Origin: a virus
DNA length: 64,000 nucleotides
Direction: 5' to 3' (one strand)
Virus record (IMG/VR): IMGVR_UViG_3300010162_000535
Location: 12,205-76,204 of that record
Below, one piece after another: positions 2,862 to 61,354 of this stretch. Both the position numbers and the translations under genes were made by a program. Every line of letters begins with the position of its first letter. Position 1 is the stretch's first letter. The notes beneath the pieces were generated by a model. It was not told the DNA's origin, made no database searches, and saw nothing but the letters and a program-made list of their open reading frames with translations.

Positions 2862-3683
2862 TTAAATAACTCCGTGAGCTGACAAAATAGCTGACTTATG
2901 GACAATAGTTGAGCTGCGTATTGCCTGCTCAATCATCTCTATATAGCCTTCATTTCTTGTAATTCGGTCGTTTAATAAAGCCACTAACCGCCTACTAATA
3001 GTTCCTCGCTTTATTAGTGATTTATAATAATTAATCTTATCTGTGCAGGCCACTAACAAAGCTGGGAGAATAATCTCATAGTAAACGTTATAGGTGTAGC
3101 TCTCAATGGCCGTCGGCACCGTTACGGAAGCGGGTAATTGCTTTTTTAAAATATTTAAAAAATTAATGTGATAGGAATTTGCATTGAAAACTTTAAGTAT
3201 TTCCCTACTTTTCTTATCAAAATGCTCTTTAATGTCTTTACATTTTGCCATATCCTTGCAATGATGGTTTTTATAAATAGAAGGTACAAATGCTTTATAG
3301 GCTATGGAATTGATGATCGTATGCGCCTGTAAGGTTTCCACATCTTCTCCTGCCACAAATTCTGAAAGCAATCTACAAGAAGTTAAACCATCACTAATAG
3401 CTGACTGCACTTCAGCATCAATGTCCCTGCCTTTATTGCACAGCTCCATTAATACAAAATTATCCTCTTTATTCCAGAGCTGATCTATAGCCAACCAAAC
3501 CAACGTTATTATTGTTCCAGCTAGCAGACAATAAACAACCGTAGACTGATTATCAATTTTGCCAATAGAGTCGATTATTAAAGATACGCCAAATAAAATC
3601 GCAATTGGCGAAGTCTTAGCTAGCACATTGCCCCACTGGGCAAGAGCCGCTAGATTACTTGATGCGTTAATTAGTTGGGTCAA
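2862..3683 (-). CDS. Hypothetical protein with two N-terminal transmembrane helices
   Basis: PIAILFGVSLIIDSI and VVYCLLAGTIITLVWLAI are hydrophobic segments, followed by a soluble domain. Confidence 0.65.
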   Translation of the reverse strand: MTQLINASSNLAALAQWGNVLAKTSPIAILFGVSLIIDSIGKIDNQSTVVYCLLAGTIITLVWLAIDQLWNKEDNFVLMELCNKGRDIDAEVQSAISDGLTSCRLLSEFVAGEDVETLQAHTIINSIAYKAFVPSIYKNHHCKDMAKCKDIKEHFDKKSREILKVFNANSYHINFLNILKKQLPASVTVPTAIESYTYNVYYEIILPALLVACTDKINYYKSLIKRGTISRRLVALLNDRITRNEGYIEMIEQAIRSSTIVHKSAILSAHGVI

Positions 3684-53908: not shown

Positions 53909-56900
53909 TCATCGCCGCAGGATCTCAACTTCATCGGACAACTGAACTTCGCCTCTTACCCATGCTTGCTTAAAATCAGCCATTGTTGCGAAGACCTTTG
54001 GGCGGCTTTTCTTTTTTCTAGATCTAGTAGCTTCATAAAGCCCAGCTATGTAGTCCTCTTGTGGCGTAAAGTTAGGAGACCCATCAGTCATATTTAGTAA
54101 ATTTTGTGAAGGCAGCATCAATCTTATTGCATCTTGAACTGCGTCATCGCTGATAGGTAATTGAAAATTCATAGCATCGCCGTCGAGGTCAGCACCAAAG
54201 CCTCCCATGGTATATTGATTCATTTGGATGCTATTTCCTTTAACTAGCTTAGGCCAAAAAGCCATAATTCCATATTGGTGCAAAATAGGAGATCGATCAA
54301 GAACTACTGGACGCTCTTGCACTGACTGTAAAAGTGCAGCTTTAGCTCGCTTGTCTTTATTATCGTACATGTCCTGAGCTGTCGTAAGCGGAACACCGCT
54401 TTGAGCTAGCTTCCTGATAATTACTGGTTTATAGATTTCATAAGCTGAATTAATGGGTAGCCCAACTTCATCTAAATCAAGATTGGGCGACATGGTAATT
54501 ACGTTACGGGAAACAACGTCAACGCCTCCACCCAATAAATTACGTTGTACCATTCCATATTTACTGCTCCCCTCCCCAAAGACATGTCGCAATAACCCTG
54601 TTACCCGTTTTTGCTGTAGCTTGGGATGGGACGGATCCATTAATCCAGTTATTTGTTTAAAATAGTTGTAAGACTGCAAATACTCTTCACCTGCGTCACC
54701 AATTTGACCTTCTAGCTCCTTAACTGTTTTATCGTGATCAATCATTTGCTTATACAAATAATTAACATCGGCAATTAAAGCAGTTTTTGTCCCGCCCATC
54801 TCAGACACGGGCCGGAACTTAGGCGGTATAACTGGAATACGATCCAGCATCCAATCAGCTGGCGTTAAATCATTATCTTTAGCTGCCTTTAAGAACTGCA
54901 GCTTCTTTACTGCTTCATCTCTTTTTGTGCCTCTTGTACTGGCTATAGTTTCACGAGCACGAGACATTTCATGGTCAACATTTAGCTTGCCTAAAGCTTT
55001 TCTAATAGCTTGTGGCCCAGTTCCAAACTCATTTAATTGTGCCCGACCAGCTATGACATCATTTAATTTAGCCTGTGTCAAACCTAGCATTCTTCTAGCT
55101 GGCTCTTCCATTACCGGATTAAGCATAGGCTGAGCTGGTTTAATAAAGCCCCATTTCTCGCCATACTCACCAAAAATAGCTGGATCAAATAATCCGCCTT
55201 TAATACCCTTTTTATCGCCTTCCCACTTAATTGTTTCAGAAGAAGTGACTTCCCTATTACCAACTAATTGCTTGACATCATTATTAGTAAGGGCCAAGAT
55301 TTTCAGCTTGTTAGCTGTTGGCGTTACATTAATTCCCGATCCTTGAAGGTGAGCCATAAACTTATGATACATTTGAGGCATTTCTGGCTCAGGCGGCTGA
55401 TAACCTCTCATAAAAGCTGCCCAATAGTCATCATTTTTCTGCCCACGAATTCGCCTCGCATCAGCTAACATGTTATAAGCTCCATGACTTATAAGGGCGT
55501 TTGTGTGCATAAGAGCTACTCTTTTGGCCCCTTCACTGCCTCCGCTTGCAGGTTGTTCATCAGCTGTGTAATGACCAAAAGAACGGTCACTTGTCTTTCC
55601 CTCAGCTGAATGATGGAGTTTTTGAACGTAGCTGTAGCCCCACCCAATACCCTTTCCGTCCGTCCCGGTTATTAATTTACCTGTTTCAGGATCTAATACT
55701 GGATCCCGTGGATTAATTCCATGTTCTTTTGCCAAGCGCAAAACATATGCCGCCGTGTCAGGCTCCTTGGGATCAAATGATTCAATCTTAATTGGCTTAC
55801 CAGTTTTCTTAGCAATTCGGCCTAATAAATGCTCATGCAGCATCGAATAATTTACTCTACCGATATTTCCTATTGGAGAATATACAATTTCAGCTGGGCC
55901 ATCAGGAGTTTGTGGCATCTGATCATCAGGGACTATCTCAGCAATAACGCCTTTTGCCCCATATCTGTTCGCGAGCTTATCTGCCAAACGTGTTGGCGAC
56001 AAAGAACTTACGACTACATTAACACCATTCTTATCATTAAACACCTCAACCACCTGACCTGGGTCTTCATGATCCCATTCCAGCGCACTATTAGTTAATG
56101 ACTGTGCGCCTTTACGATGGATGCGATCAACCGGTTTTGTATTTACATCAGCTTTAAGCACCATTGGGTCGCCTTGATTTAAGACTGTCCCAATACGTAC
56201 AACACCGTCATCGTCGATAGTGTCTAGCTGAGCTGCATCATAGACTGATGGAAATGCGCCCATAAAGGTTTTCTTACCCTGCTTAATATTCTCAGCCCAA
56301 TCTACTTTATGCTGATAGGCATGCTGAGACTTCATACGATCAGCCATCGATTTGCTGATAATAATTGCATCCATAGTATTACTGCCTCTCCACGGCATTA
56401 CAACCGCCCTAGCATTAAACCCCTGTGCCATTGCGCCAGTATCATCCGTAAAATTAGATTTAGCTAACAGCTGGCCTTTTGTAATCTGCTGACCGGGTTG
56501 AACTACTGGAGTTTGAGTAGTATAAGTATTGTGCACAACTAACCCACCGCCTACACAAAAACAATGCGAATTAGCTACCGTCAAATCATATACATCAGTA
56601 ACGAACTCTGTTAGTTTTATTTCTGTGATTAAATCCCATTCAATATCCGAAGCTGCCCACAATCCAAAATTACCAGAAATATCTTTTAGTAATTTTTTAG
56701 GTATTGCGCCTTTTGTACCGTACCTGTATAATTCTCGCCATTTTTTTAATTCCCAAAATTTCTTAGGTCTTAAATTTTTTAATAATTTAATTGAAGCTTT
56801 ACTAACTGGTACTTTTTCAGTACAGCCCGTTATTTGTCGTTTATTTTTTTGACAATTTAAAAGATCATCTAATAATTTTTGACGATCTTCATAAATAAAC

Positions 56901-59725
56901 CATGTTTTTAATTTTTTAATACTTTCCGTTCTAACACGAAAACCATATGCATCCGCCCATTTATCATTTATTAATTTTCTAGGAGAAAATAAAATAGTCG
57001 TTGAAACGTTTAAAGAAGCTAAAATATCAACTAAATCATCACGTAAACGTTCGGAAGTAACAAACACACACAATTGAATAGCGCCGTTTATGTCCGTATG
57101 TAAGCAAGCATCGCCGCTAAAAAATCCAGCAATAAGTCCTTGCCTAAAAGCTTTAGACTCACCTAACAGTTCATCAGCTATATATTTAGTACCAGAATAT
57201 CTTCCACAATAATTAAATAAATCGCAAGCCAATGCCGCATTTGCTATTCTTACTCCACCTTTTATCGGCAATGCCTTATTTTCTGCCGACCAATCTTGTA
57301 AATAAGTCAGGACTTGTTGCTTACGAGACTGACCCTCAACAGCAAAATTAACCTCACTATAAATATTGCCATCATTAGCTTTAAATTTTTCCAATTTTTT
57401 ACGACCGGCATCTCCCTTTTTCGGAAATTTTGATTGTGCTTGATGTACTGAAGTATGTGCAACAGCCCGTTTTAAATAGCCTTCAGCAAGATAAAGCCCA
57501 GTAACCGCTCCTCGAACATATTCTGCCCTGTAATCGTATTCCCTTTTTTCACTAAGCGCTAATGATGCAATAGGTATTCGTGTTTTACCGACGATACATT
57601 CCGATGGAAATAACGGTACAAGCGCACCAATATCATTTAAAGTTACTAAACTATGATCTTCAGTTACCTGCACTTTTCGTCCAGATTTTGTAACTATTTC
57701 AAGTATTTGTTTATCTTTATTAGTTACTTTTTGTACCGCTGTTACGGCTTCCCAACCGGTATTATAATTATTTTGTTGAATAGTTCGTGTCTTATCTCCG
57801 GGTTGCCAGCTATAGTCTTTTATTTTTCCTCGCCAAATTTTTCCAGTTTCCCGTAATATGTAAATCTTAGTGTCACCTACAACACACTTTCTATTGCTTG
57901 CTGCGTTCTTGACAAAAGGAAATTTCTTTTGTCCTTCTGGAGTGTCAATAATAATTTCTCGATCAGTTACTTTTCTAACCATGCCCTCTACATCAGAATT
58001 AACAGTAGAAAAGAGACCTATTTTGTCTTCATATGACTCATCTTTAGCTCCTGGCATACGTGATTGAACTAAAGGGGATTCGCCGCCTTCTAAAGGCAGT
58101 GCTTGAGTAATCATACGAGCTGCCATCGATACTCGCTGTCCTTTTACATTCCCCAGCATGGGAATTAAATTAGAAAGATTGTTGTAGCCTGACTGCGCAT
58201 TGGGAAAAATATAATCAATTTGATCTTTTTTAATTCCCATTCTGGGTTGCCTATCTCTGTCGAAGGCAGAAATACGATCATCCCCTTTGGCCCACTCTGA
58301 TTGAAGCGTGACCGTAGCTTCCATCAAATCTACTGGATTTTTATATTCTTCCTTACCTGTTCGGGCATTTATTACTGGAATATATAAATTACCGTCGGAT
58401 CCTTTTTTAGCTGACGAGCTAATATAAAGGTCAACTCCTGCCCTTAAAGATTCTGGTGTTTGTAGCGGATCAATAAACCCATATTGACTATTGTTTACCT
58501 CGCGAGCTGAGTCTGGGATAGCGTTTGAGTCATTGATTGCTCCCGCACCCATTCTTGTCACGCTAAATAACTTAGAATACTGCTCATATGGGTTTACTTC
58601 CTCAGCTGGGCTAGCTAACCCACTTTGAGTAATAACCGCCCCAATTTGTTTCGATAATGCACCAGTTGGTATTTTATCTAAATTGGGATTATTATTTGAC
58701 AAGAATGTCAGTTTATTTAATAGTTGCCTTCTTACTCTACCGTCATCTAATCTAAGTCGCTCAGCAAATAAATCTTCTGGCCCGTGAAAGGATTGAAAAG
58801 CCATATTATCTCGACTATCACTTTCAACTTCTCCACGAGCTAATTGAACTAATTTTTTAGATGCACTTAACACAGCGTCCTTATCTAAATGATCCTTTTC
58901 TGTCCCAAGTGTTGATCGAGTTACTTCCTTAGCAAATTTAATCGCAGCAGCTTGCTCTTGAATACGCTCACGCATTTTAGCGTCACTGTCTTTATCTCCT
59001 GGTTGCTGATATTTCTTCCTTACAAAACGATCATACAGCTTACGAGTATTTACTTCTCTTGCGTGTGCTTTATTTGTTTCAAATAATTTATCACCCCAAG
59101 CTTCCTTTAACTCATCGTCGGACGCGCCCATTGCATGCAAAAAAGTATACAACGGCACATTATTTTTACTGACTTCCATATCAAATCTACCGGTAGTTGG
59201 GTCAAACTTATAAGAATGTGTCGGCCCTTCATGGTCAGCTGCATTTACATTAGCCACCAGCTCATTATTCTCCTTTTGTCTAACATAAATTCCATGCTTA
59301 AGTCTTTGCTGATTACGGATGTAATAGAGATTACCAGAGTCCATGACCCCACCATTGTCCAAAATATACGGGACATTAGCTAAAGTCTTGCGCTGTTTCT
59401 GTAGAAGCCTTCCTGTTTGAGTGTCTATTAAATTCCAAGTACCTCTAAGCCTGCGATTGAGTGACCGTTGCTGGATTCTAGCTTGGTGAACATCGTGCGC
59501 ATTGTATGCAGGATTGTCAGCCCAATCTACATCAGAAATGGACAGCGTGTAGCGATTATTAGACACAGGCTGCAAATTACTTGCGGCTTGATGTACGGAA
59601 TCAAATACCGCACTTCTAAGAGCTGCAGGATCGTCAAAGGCTCTCATCCGAACAGCTGGTTTTTCGTCCTCTTTCTTTTGCTGCGGAGGCCGTAAAGTAT
59701 TCTGAAAAAGCGGCGGTGTAGTCAT
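53909..59725 (-). CDS. rpoBC: RNA polymerase beta fused to the beta' N-terminal half (catalytic Asp triad), intein-containing
   Basis: Beta motifs: YGFIDPLQTPES, LIPMLG...RVSMAARMITQALP, DKLANRYGAKGVI, YVQKLHH, GAKRVALM. Beta' motifs: GGLFDPAIFG, IPVIPPKFRP, QRNLLGGGVD, LDRSPILH, GADLDGDAM (54176-54196), TPQEDYIAGLY. Confidence 0.97.
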   Translation of the reverse strand: MTTPPLFQNTLRPPQQKKEDEKPAVRMRAFDDPAALRSAVFDSVHQAASNLQPVSNNRYTLSISDVDWADNPAYNAHDVHQARIQQRSLNRRLRGTWNLIDTQTGRLLQKQRKTLANVPYILDNGGVMDSGNLYYIRNQQRLKHGIYVRQKENNELVANVNAADHEGPTHSYKFDPTTGRFDMEVSKNNVPLYTFLHAMGASDDELKEAWGDKLFETNKAHAREVNTRKLYDRFVRKKYQQPGDKDSDAKMRERIQEQAAAIKFAKEVTRSTLGTEKDHLDKDAVLSASKKLVQLARGEVESDSRDNMAFQSFHGPEDLFAERLRLDDGRVRRQLLNKLTFLSNNNPNLDKIPTGALSKQIGAVITQSGLASPAEEVNPYEQYSKLFSVTRMGAGAINDSNAIPDSAREVNNSQYGFIDPLQTPESLRAGVDLYISSSAKKGSDGNLYIPVINARTGKEEYKNPVDLMEATVTLQSEWAKGDDRISAFDRDRQPRMGIKKDQIDYIFPNAQSGYNNLSNLIPMLGNVKGQRVSMAARMITQALPLEGGESPLVQSRMPGAKDESYEDKIGLFSTVNSDVEGMVRKVTDREIIIDTPEGQKKFPFVKNAASNRKCVVGDTKIYILRETGKIWRGKIKDYSWQPGDKTRTIQQNNYNTGWEAVTAVQKVTNKDKQILEIVTKSGRKVQVTEDHSLVTLNDIGALVPLFPSECIVGKTRIPIASLALSEKREYDYRAEYVRGAVTGLYLAEGYLKRAVAHTSVHQAQSKFPKKGDAGRKKLEKFKANDGNIYSEVNFAVEGQSRKQQVLTYLQDWSAENKALPIKGGVRIANAALACDLFNYCGRYSGTKYIADELLGESKAFRQGLIAGFFSGDACLHTDINGAIQLCVFVTSERLRDDLVDILASLNVSTTILFSPRKLINDKWADAYGFRVRTESIKKLKTWFIYEDRQKLLDDLLNCQKNKRQITGCTEKVPVSKASIKLLKNLRPKKFWELKKWRELYRYGTKGAIPKKLLKDISGNFGLWAASDIEWDLITEIKLTEFVTDVYDLTVANSHCFCVGGGLVVHNTYTTQTPVVQPGQQITKGQLLAKSNFTDDTGAMAQGFNARAVVMPWRGSNTMDAIIISKSMADRMKSQHAYQHKVDWAENIKQGKKTFMGAFPSVYDAAQLDTIDDDGVVRIGTVLNQGDPMVLKADVNTKPVDRIHRKGAQSLTNSALEWDHEDPGQVVEVFNDKNGVNVVVSSLSPTRLADKLANRYGAKGVIAEIVPDDQMPQTPDGPAEIVYSPIGNIGRVNYSMLHEHLLGRIAKKTGKPIKIESFDPKEPDTAAYVLRLAKEHGINPRDPVLDPETGKLITGTDGKGIGWGYSYVQKLHHSAEGKTSDRSFGHYTADEQPASGGSEGAKRVALMHTNALISHGAYNMLADARRIRGQKNDDYWAAFMRGYQPPEPEMPQMYHKFMAHLQGSGINVTPTANKLKILALTNNDVKQLVGNREVTSSETIKWEGDKKGIKGGLFDPAIFGEYGEKWGFIKPAQPMLNPVMEEPARRMLGLTQAKLNDVIAGRAQLNEFGTGPQAIRKALGKLNVDHEMSRARETIASTRGTKRDEAVKKLQFLKAAKDNDLTPADWMLDRIPVIPPKFRPVSEMGGTKTALIADVNYLYKQMIDHDKTVKELEGQIGDAGEEYLQSYNYFKQITGLMDPSHPKLQQKRVTGLLRHVFGEGSSKYGMVQRNLLGGGVDVVSRNVITMSPNLDLDEVGLPINSAYEIYKPVIIRKLAQSGVPLTTAQDMYDNKDKRAKAALLQSVQERPVVLDRSPILHQYGIMAFWPKLVKGNSIQMNQYTMGGFGADLDGDAMNFQLPISDDAVQDAIRLMLPSQNLLNMTDGSPNFTPQEDYIAGLYEATRSRKKKSRPKVFATMADFKQAWVRGEVQLSDEVEILRR
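56528..57886 (-). mobile_element. Intein (453 aa) with LAGLIDADG homing endonuclease
   Basis: Starts CVVGDTKI and ends LVVHN|T; VTGLYLAEGY and LIAGFFSGDAC motifs. Confidence 0.95.
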
Positions 59726-59755
59726 GCTTTAATTATACTTGAGCATGTCGAAGCT

Positions 59756-60206
59756 AAAAAAAAGAGCGGACAGCGATTATAGGCTCCTTCCTGACCAGGA
59801 AAGGCTACCTATAACGCTTTGCTCACAAAATACCTCCTGTACCAATAGAAGTATATGCATTCGGGAAGTGAGCGCACCCCTACATTGCTCATCTCGCTGA
59901 GCAATTTGCTAGTCATCGCCAGCGGCGTCATCCTGTCTCCTGAGCGGGCGATAACTCACGTTGCCCCAGGACAAGCACATTTTTTTACGCTACTAACGTT
60001 ACGAGTATATGGTAATGTGCGCCGCAGCTCCACCATACATTGTCGTCAAGGATTCTTTATCATTGCAGCTTGTACCTTGAATAGGGCTGCAACGTGTGGT
60101 TCTCCTTATAGGATTATGTCACTGAACAGTTCACAGAGGCCACAGCTCTCCCTGTCTCCGAGTTTCCCCGGACTAACCGCGTTGTCTTTGCGGCGGACGT
60201 TCCTTT
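59756..60206 (-). ncRNA. Candidate large structured non-coding RNA (~450 nt), family unassigned
   Basis: GC-richer gap with at least 7 stems, GAAA and GUGA tetraloops, G-U pairs, two possible H-type pseudoknots and a long 3' hairpin plus U-tract; AT-rich repeated leader upstream. The 5' end is approximate. Confidence 0.7.
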
Positions 60207-60301
60207 TTGTTGCATGAAAATATTTTATAAAAATCTTCATTATTTATAAATATCTTCACTATTTAATAACACAAATAACGCTGTTTTTTAATTCTTTTTA
60301 G

Positions 60302-61354
60302 CTACCTTGTAAGTCCACTATTTACAGCTTTTACAATAGGCTCAAATGAATCATAAACAACGGGAATACTTTCAGAAAGAACAACGCCTAGTCTTCCATA
60401 CCTGCCTGCCGTAGAAAGAAATCTCGATGCAATAGCTTTCGTCATCCAGGCGCCATCAGCTGGCGAACCCAGAATGTCAGCTGCTGTATAGCGACGGCCG
60501 TGACTGTTTAGCCAGTAGACATATTCTTCGCCGCCCACAGTGACCCAACTATTAATGCTGGTTGCATGATTCCAGCTGCCCGATAGCGTAGCTACTCTCA
60601 CGCCATTTCTATCCGTTGAACTGCCGCCCACTTTTATTGTATTCCCTAAGAAAATACCAAACCCGGCCTTAGCTGCCTCGAAAACCCTATCAACAAGATT
60701 ATCCGTAGGCATCCAGCAAAGACCTGATTGGTAATTAAGAGCGACATTTGCATGTGTCCTTGTGTCCGGCTGACGAGTTACATTATCGCCAGCTACTTCA
60801 ATTGGGAAATTACCGTGTCGATTAACAGCCGCACCAATTGCAGCTATGCTCTGGCCGCCCCGCATACTGCCGCCTTTAGAAATAACCCAAGTCACTAATG
60901 GATTATACGGGTTATACAGCATTGGCTGCCCTAAAGCAATATCAGTAAGTGTTGAAGCATGCTTTGCGAACGCAGCTGCAAATCCGGCGCAGCTGGGCAC
61001 AGACTGTTGGCTAAATGCAAATTGGTTACCTCGCCGGAAGTTAGATGGAAGAGCTGGAATAATATCCCAAGGAAACCAGCTAAACCCTGAGTCTACAATA
61101 CGTTGCAAGGCTACCTGCCGAGACCGCATGTAACGCTCGAAGGTACTATCCCAAGCTATGATTGGCATATCCCCACCACGCTCCCAGCCAGAAATACTGA
61201 CAGCTGCTGCGGACATTGCCTCTAATAACTCTTCATCATAATCATCCGCTGGCAAACAGCCATCTTCCGCAGCATTAGCAATATTTGCCTCGCGCCTCAG
61301 CCTAGCTCGTTCGGACATCCGAACATCTGAAATTCTAAATCTGCTTCTAAACAT
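60302..61354 (-). CDS. Papain-like (C1) cysteine peptidase
   Basis: SQQSVPSCAGFA (Gln, Cys), WNHATSI (His), WLNSHG (Asn); AGGAGA SD. Confidence 0.85.
   Translation of the reverse strand: MFRSRFRISDVRMSERARLRREANIANAAEDGCLPADDYDEELLEAMSAAAVSISGWERGGDMPIIAWDSTFERYMRSRQVALQRIVDSGFSWFPWDIIPALPSNFRRGNQFAFSQQSVPSCAGFAAAFAKHASTLTDIALGQPMLYNPYNPLVTWVISKGGSMRGGQSIAAIGAAVNRHGNFPIEVAGDNVTRQPDTRTHANVALNYQSGLCWMPTDNLVDRVFEAAKAGFGIFLGNTIKVGGSSTDRNGVRVATLSGSWNHATSINSWVTVGGEEYVYWLNSHGRRYTAADILGSPADGAWMTKAIASRFLSTAGRYGRLGVVLSESIPVVYDSFEPIVKAVNSGLTR

Follow-up and report, generated by a model that had tools for sequence, protein, structure and literature searches.

An ORF-less gap upstream of the fused RNA polymerase gene of a termite-gut phage: a candidate gene-free copy of a modular early cassette

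The 576-nt gap (59726-60301) that separates a 350-aa ORF (60302-61354) from a 1938-aa ORF (53909-59725) on the minus strand of a termite-gut phage is read here as an ORF-less copy of a modular, PeSL-like early cassette of termite-gut jumbo phages, which would give rise to an orphan, strain-specific transcript of ~500 nt; we give this reading about an even chance. It draws on a promoter module and a 5′ stem-loop that are common to related phages, on the terminator junction and on a conserved TATAAT box ahead of the RNA polymerase (RNAP) gene, as well as on the absence of coding capacity, the variability of the region upstream of the RNAP gene and the occurrence of a second ORF-less unit in the related locus L005. 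The gap is the largest ORF-free stretch both in the window, by which we mean the whole 64-kb stretch of DNA that was analysed, and in the 92.7-kb IMG/VR phage record of which the window is part. Identical DNA is present in termite-gut metagenome contigs of up to 225 kb, and the copies from three termite-gut metagenome studies are 100% identical to the window across 5 kb. No RNA run was found to contain this DNA. The 1938-aa ORF encodes a fused β/β′-N RNAP, which combines RNAP β domains, an intein and N-terminal β′ domains. Every long ORF of the window that is confidently coding runs in the minus direction; plus-strand ORFs of at least 90 aa are few, and most of these overlap coding ORFs of the minus strand. 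The original prediction of a discrete, non-coding minus-strand unit holds, in that the gap contains a conserved promoter module, lacks coding capacity and ends in a hairpin followed by a U8 tract. The following features can be recognized:

60257-60291, minus strand: predicted promoter module, consisting of an A-tract (TTAAAAAAC), a 5-nt spacer, a T-rich block, TG, an AT-rich -10-like box and AGTG.
60214-60259, minus strand: 5′ AU-rich stem-loop, the arms of which are two 19-nt repeats (TGAAGATwTTTATAAA, twice).
60106-60240, minus strand: 44-codon ORF without a Shine-Dalgarno (SD) sequence, beginning inside the 5′ hairpin.
60199-60211, minus strand: SD-like remnant AACAAAAAGGAAC, with no ATG, GTG or TTG after it.
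59825-60198, minus strand: orphan non-coding body, GC 0.49.
60157-60172, minus strand: GAAA hairpin inside the body.
60061-60094, minus strand: hairpin inside the body.
60007-60038, minus strand: hairpin inside the body.
59932-59975, minus strand: bulged GUGA hairpin inside the body.
59885-59923, minus strand: twin hairpins inside the body.
59809-59931, minus strand: 40-codon ORF with AGGAG 5 nt ahead of its ATG, the sole ORF of the unit with a good SD.
59756-59824, minus strand: predicted intrinsic terminator, a 61-nt compound hairpin (59764-59824) closed by GAGC/GCUC and directly followed by U8 (59756-59763).
59732-59737, minus strand: putative -10 box TATAAT of the RNAP gene itself, 6 nt ahead of the ATG at 59725, with no SD.
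59855-60217, plus strand: 120-aa ORF, the longest open frame of the gap.

Relatives could be found for the segment 60257-60291 only, the remainder of the gap having none. This module aligns with intergenic modules in L002 (three copies), L005 and ~10 termite-gut metagenome loci, and is present as a single copy in the 92.7-kb record. A pattern based on the module identified ~12 distinct copies in termite-gut metagenome contigs, each ahead of a different ORF, and a promoter pattern without the A-tract produced 26 matches in viral contigs, none of which contained the module. In L002 (72% RNAP identity), which is the same phage as L132, three tandem module copies are located directly upstream of the RNAP gene. 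In the relatives, the module is followed at a distance of 38-74 nt by a strong SD (AACAAAGGAG), which precedes an ORF of 95-186 aa. L002 and L119-L132 share the order TTAAAAAAC, five variable nucleotides and TTTTTGTGGTAAAGAATAGTG, followed by a stem-loop starting at GUG, the AACAAAGGAG SD and a small ORF, and L002, L131 and L132 show the terminator joined through the T-run and AG to TTAAAAAAC. On the grounds of its conservation and its promoter likeness, we infer that 60257-60291 acts as a promoter; a consensus scan chose another hexamer pair, which lies inside the 5′ hairpin, and the start site is therefore uncertain by ~30 nt. The module would be σ70-like with an upstream A-tract, would be read by the host RNAP and would start transcription near 60255.

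The predicted transcript would open with the class-typical 5′ stem-loop, followed by the SD-like remnant that lacks a start codon. The 5′ stem-loop folds with a z-score of -3.2 (2/200 shuffles were equally good), and a stem-loop that starts from the same GUG after the promoter is present in nine of the eleven distinct related cassettes that were folded, with differing arm sequences; in the L123 and L131 cassettes the 5′ stem begins elsewhere or is only partly paired. The repeats that make up the arms had been proposed to replace the cassette motif in the leader. Their presence is borne out, while their role as a replacement is not, as the conserved promoter lies 5′ of them and, being the arms of the stem-loop, they do not represent an alternative promoter. 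At the position of the SD-like remnant, the cassettes of the relatives carry AACAAAGGAG, followed 5-8 nt on by an ATG and an ORF, and a weak nhmmer alignment to L129 (E 0.12) passes through the AACAAAAAGGAAC region. The transcript would subsequently cross ~370 nt of GC-rich, non-coding and not detectably conserved sequence and end at the hairpin and U8 tract of 59756-59824, with the RNAP gene starting thirty bases on, from its own TATAAT box, probably as a leaderless mRNA. From these signals we infer that the unit is transcribed, and that this takes place early and through the host polymerase.

The terminator hairpin has a minimum free energy (MFE) of -28.1 kcal/mol and a z-score of -4.3, and corresponds to the long 3′ hairpin that had been anticipated ahead of U8. 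The T-run and AGCT that follow it form a junction shared with the terminators that other cassettes carry, both in the window and in L002. A simple terminator scan missed the hairpin because of the loop and stem limits of that scan. In the window, as in L002 and L003 (near 2985-3003 in the latter two), 6-7 nt separate the TATAAT box from the ATG of the RNAP gene; in L005 and L009 the box lies farther upstream. The N-termini of 14 RNAP homologues align from residue 1. The arrangement suggests that the RNAP mRNA is leaderless and made by the host RNAP. The presence of a conserved TATAAT after the terminator further indicates that the RNAP gene has its own promoter and that the unit is not an RNAP leader; its terminator would instead shield the RNAP gene from upstream read-through.

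The PeSL (promoter-early stem-loop) cassettes of T4-type phages are small modules in which a strong σ70-like promoter is coupled to a stem-loop terminator (Arbiol et al. 2010, PMC2839356; PMC4122927). They recur in hyperplastic regions, between ORFan genes that are small and variable, and are conserved while their flanks are unrelated (PMC2839356; PMC4122927). The cassettes described here are similar in that the relatives have in common a promoter module of ~35 nt, a 5′ stem-loop and the T-run-AG junction at the terminator, while their cargo differs. A conserved σ70-like module, a predicted promoter, thus occurs in ~12 copies between unrelated small genes, and a stem-loop terminator (hairpin and U8, z -4.3) is joined to the promoter module. 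The cassettes differ from PeSL in that they belong to an unrelated lineage, that of jumbo phages with a fused β/β′-N RNAP, in that the motif sequence is unrelated and in that the window copy has no ORF. The sequence upstream of the RNAP gene is different in each of the closest relatives (60-74% RNAP identity).

The same promoter module precedes another ORF-less unit, in L005 (L005:1470-1925), the sequence of which is the same as that of L123:2547-3002. It comprises ~230 nt without an ORF and with strong hairpins, followed by a 27-codon ORF with an SD and then a terminator, and folds at z -4.6. Beyond its promoter this unit is likewise an orphan, with no homologue found by nhmmer in the fetched loci, and at least two copies of the cassette therefore carry no gene. 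In L002 a 195-nt gap (L002:2373-2568) precedes the gene before the RNAP gene and contains a tRNA T-arm-like sequence (GGGTTCGATTCCC), for which there is no Rfam tRNA match.

The body does not code for protein, nor does it represent a gene that was disrupted recently. Each of its sense frames contains between 8 and 16 stops and, where stops are ignored, the sense-frame codon bias across the body averages 0.12, as compared to 0.17 for antisense controls. Neither genetic code 4 nor the reading of TAG as glutamine opened an ORF in the gap, the ORFs of the gap have no Pfam or PHROG matches, and a six-frame tblastn comparison of the gap against all fetched loci was negative.

The original prediction had gone further and proposed that the gap gives rise to an 'ornate' non-coding RNA of ~450 nt, both functional and highly structured, which would found a new class and might be an RNAP partner or be packaged into virions. 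We consider this unlikely. The gap is a discrete ORF-free unit bounded by a predicted promoter and terminator, as such an RNA would be, the strings quoted in the prediction are all present on the minus strand at the positions given for them, and both GNRA-capped hairpins (GAAA and GUGA) exist. However, the two tandem pseudoknots that had been regarded as a sign of selection occur at chance frequency in the window. When hairpins with a 7-bp stem and a 6-nt loop complement no more than 40 nt downstream were counted on both strands of the window (128 kb), 54 were found with Watson-Crick pairs only and 146 (1.14 per kb) with one G-U pair allowed, a variant that was included since the second of the predicted hairpins needs one. 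At this rate two such motifs are expected by chance in 460 nt, and adjacent pairs of them within 120 nt occur 27 times in the 128 kb. An ORF-free gap in which helices and loop complements are drawn by hand resembles an ornate RNA, yet these are met at the same rate inside the genes of this phage.

Folding energies point in the same direction. For the whole gap the z-score is -3.9 when the minus strand is folded, a figure that is inflated as shuffling blends the AT-rich leader with the GC-rich body, and -1.4 for the plus strand. The minus strand again folds somewhat better in the 460-nt core (z -2.41, against -1.84 for the plus strand), while the central 168 nt, which include both 'pseudoknot' hairpins and the bulged GUGA hairpin, reach only -1.44, with 18/200 shuffles folding as well. 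Across native 300-nt windows of the phage the mean z-score is -0.67 (sd 1.24) and the lowest value, -4.55, falls within a gene; the 300-nt window 59800-60099 scores -1.16. The expected excess of folding energy over shuffled sequences is thus not clearly beyond the native background. Among the individual segments, the 5′ AU hairpin (-3.2), the terminator (-4.3), the hairpin at 60061-60094 (-2.9) and the twin hairpins at 59885-59923 (-2.4) stand out, the first two of which are generic transcript features, while the others range from +0.66 to -1.8, including +0.2 for the hairpin at 60007-60038. The internal segments of the body average ~-1.1, as compared to the genome mean of -0.67. With helices and loop complements at chance level, the description of the unit as ornate and structurally selected finds no support.

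That the unit fits no described RNA family is confirmed. There was no family match in Rfam 15 for the whole window at gathering score, nor for 59400-60700 at E<=10 with permissive filters, where the models included ROOL, GOLLD, OLE, HEARO, raiA, 6S and the riboswitches, and the five closest related loci also gave nothing at the Rfam gathering score. ARAGORN identified no tRNA or tmRNA gene in the whole window and, with Rfam equally silent, the reported absence of tmRNA, RNase P and group I/II signatures stands. ROOL, GOLLD and OLE RNAs are of a similar size range and occur in phage genomes (Rfam; PMC12286853). The unit in the window differs from them in matching no covariance model even at E<=10 and in having no multi-genome family, nearby tRNAs or folding stability above background.

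No homologue of the body was found in any search. Blastn of the gap against 50,697 phage records was negative, as were blastn and nhmmer searches of 88 and subsequently ~150 loci, which comprised the surroundings of related RNAP genes, loci with relatives of the 350-aa neighbour, loci with the promoter module and relatives binned into metagenome-assembled genomes (MAGs), and the search of the whole record of L009 (74% RNAP identity). Wobble-tolerant DNA patterns, derived from open frames entered as 'proteins' and used six per scan, gave no match in IMG/VR, JGI metagenomes or GTDB genomes. Likewise, a covariance model (R1) built from the central 168 nt as its single sequence recovered no homologue from 1.4 Mb of loci or from 50 related IMG/VR phage records, of which 19 have a completeness of 90% or more; its sole match besides the window itself was a 17-bit hit inside a 628-aa gene, which was judged spurious. 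Upstream of the related RNAP genes other sequence is present, and the comparison to ROOL- or GOLLD-like classes lacks a second member in any collection searched or in the 50 related phage records. The proposed linkage to the RNAP gene is not supported either, as relatives at 60-74% RNAP identity have different upstream sequences and the RNAP gene has its own TATAAT. As the available copies show no variation, there is no covariation by which the helices could be upheld. The consensus scan detected no promoter for an antisense transcript on the plus strand of the gap, and the search for trans-antisense targets in the 92.7-kb record revealed no extended complementarity, the best match being 13 nt (E 0.65).

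The base composition of the gap is unusual. With a GC content of 0.489, the core falls within the top 2.4% of 460-nt windows and exceeds both the gene GC3 of 0.325 (neighbours 0.31-0.44) and all other spacers (0.31-0.42). On the minus strand the core (59787-60204) contains seven GGAG, seven AGGA and four AGGAG words, with shuffle P values of 0.001-0.004 (AGGA P 0.003), although GGAG and AGGA are merely the top two of the 256 tetramers tested and are not beyond multiple testing. Only 0.4% of sense windows have at least seven GGAG. The trinucleotide GGA itself is not enriched (P 0.08), the GGA sites lie mostly inside predicted stems, and four of the seven GGAG sites have a start codon 4-9 nt after them. 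One ACAGGAUG in the core resembles a CsrA site.

These properties bear on the fate of the proposed gene-free cassette. The high GC content of the core, the absence of leftover codon bias and the over-representation of SD-like words favour a function, while a body without relatives, the ordinary structure and the presence of protein genes in the other cassettes of the class, the ORF-less unit of L005 aside, speak against one. A long-dead cassette should drift towards AT-richness or be deleted, and a GC content of 0.49 without old codon bias therefore favours some constraint or a recent foreign origin. ORF-less and abundant phage RNAs are known. In the Vibrio phage ICP1, an RNA of ~800 nt from a 1-kb ORF-free space is the most abundant phage transcript by RNA-seq (PMC7567579). 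The unit in the window is similar in being a long ORF-free intergenic stretch of large-ncRNA size to which neither a family nor a function has been assigned and which has no tRNAs nearby, and differs in that the ICP1 RNA has been observed by RNA-seq, whereas the transcript of the unit in the window is predicted from the sequence. This precedent lends some credit to the ornate RNA of the original prediction, and renders a lineage-specific functional RNA plausible but unproven. Within the cassette reading, the unit is probably a by-product of the shuffling of cassettes that is transcribed after its ORF has been lost or replaced; that it acts as an RNA seems about half as likely.

A more specific form of such a function would be a strain-specific, early decoy RNA of ~500 nt, in which the AGGAG and GGAG sites would, during takeover, sequester 30S subunits, or else a host regulator or defence protein that binds GGA. 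We regard this as a speculative idea with little probability. It arises from the four AGGAG and seven GGAG sites, most of which have no usable ORF after them. In the CsrB/RsmZ sponge RNAs many GGA motifs are located in hairpin loops or single-stranded linkers; the core of the gap has seven AGGA and the one CsrA-like word, and its GGA sites lie mostly in predicted stems. Were the decoy to exist, the GC-rich body would be under selection while evolving too fast for recognizable homologues, and the ORF-less unit of L005 would be a second, independent case.

It is similarly improbable that the unit encodes one or more micro-proteins, from the 40-codon or the 44-codon ORF, with the rest serving as a long leader that controls translation. 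The SD of the 40-codon ORF is well spaced and would be sequestered by the predicted stem at 59932-59975, a start codon follows several of the GGAG sites at a suitable distance, and the ORF-less unit of L005 likewise ends with a short ORF that has an SD. The sense-frame codon score over the 40-codon ORF (0.22-0.25) is also the highest of the gap and an exception within it. However, the codon-usage log-odds of the ORFs themselves are -0.127 (40-codon ORF) and -0.055 (44-codon ORF), which place them 3.6 and 3 sd, respectively, below real genes, where reference chunks average 0.226, with an sd of 0.097 at a length of 40 codons and of 0.064 at 120 codons, as against -0.066 ± 0.127 for open antisense frames. 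The 40-codon ORF has no homologue by word search or pattern scan and no Pfam or PHROG match. The 44-codon ORF has no SD, and the ~320 nt of leader are left unexplained. A type I toxin-antitoxin mRNA (hok/sok-like) was considered and rejected, as the 40-residue product has no hydrophobic helix, the consensus scan gave no antisense promoter and there are no family matches.

It is very improbable that the gap is a DNA-level element between the two genes, such as the scar of a recombination event, a MITE-like insertion, or a site for replication or packaging. The ends of the gap form a 12-nt inverted repeat of an A/T-run and AGCT (59752-59763 and 60292-60303; 92% complementary), the GC content is unlike that of other spacers, and the absence of the unit from relatives is what an insertion predicts. 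The terminal repeats are, however, the generic T-run and AGCT cassette junction, and the record contains no second copy, no iterons and no GC-skew switch at the gap. That the 120-aa plus-strand ORF is a real protein gene is hardly credible, as this longest open frame of the gap, which was called by one gene caller, has a codon score of -0.164 (~6 sd below real genes), no convincing SD and no Pfam or PHROG match, lies opposite to the strand of all confidently coding long ORFs of the window, and has no homologue in three DNA collections or in an exhaustive HMMER search of 1.84 billion protein representatives, which returned itself and two short-stretch matches in long proteins that are taken to be spurious. 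The ORF has been deposited in a public protein collection as a predicted protein (P0126), which is likely a spurious gene call.

Returning to the proposed gene-free cassette, its value lies in the anatomy of a conserved early cassette, with an A-tract promoter, 5′ stem-loop, SD and terminator, in a little-known clade of jumbo phages. If ORF-less cassettes are expressed and retained, they could represent a source of fast-evolving phage RNAs that are invisible to family-based searches.

Several further observations concern the surroundings of the gap and its relatives. The phage record encodes tRNA-Pro(TGG) and tRNA-Met(CAT) (G000:C1:83473-83548 and 84701-84772), ~11 kb from the gap and outside the window. 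Relatives of the fused β/β′-N RNAP (L135-L148) are found in MAG bins that span many phyla, among them Planctomycetota, Alphaproteobacteria and Nanopelagicales; they probably represent phage contigs that were assigned to these bins by error, and no reliable host can be derived from them. Homologues of the 350-aa neighbour (60302-61354, minus strand) occur in other genomic contexts, where the gap RNA is absent. After a distant homologue of this gene, a 1.1-kb gene-free stretch with repeated GGTTCGA T-loops (L091:6289-7423) looks like a tRNA gene array. Although the 350-aa protein itself has no Pfam, PHROG or PDB sequence match, it resembles cysteine proteases of the papain fold. Four homologues all retain Gln116, Cys122, His263 and Asn283, at distances from one another that are papain-like. 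In the AF2 model (pLDDT 55.7, pTM 0.64) Cys122 is placed at the start of a long helix, and the best 50 matches of this model in a Foldseek search of the PDB are all C1 peptidases (cathepsins L/K/S and falcipains), with a TM-score by target of ~0.5.
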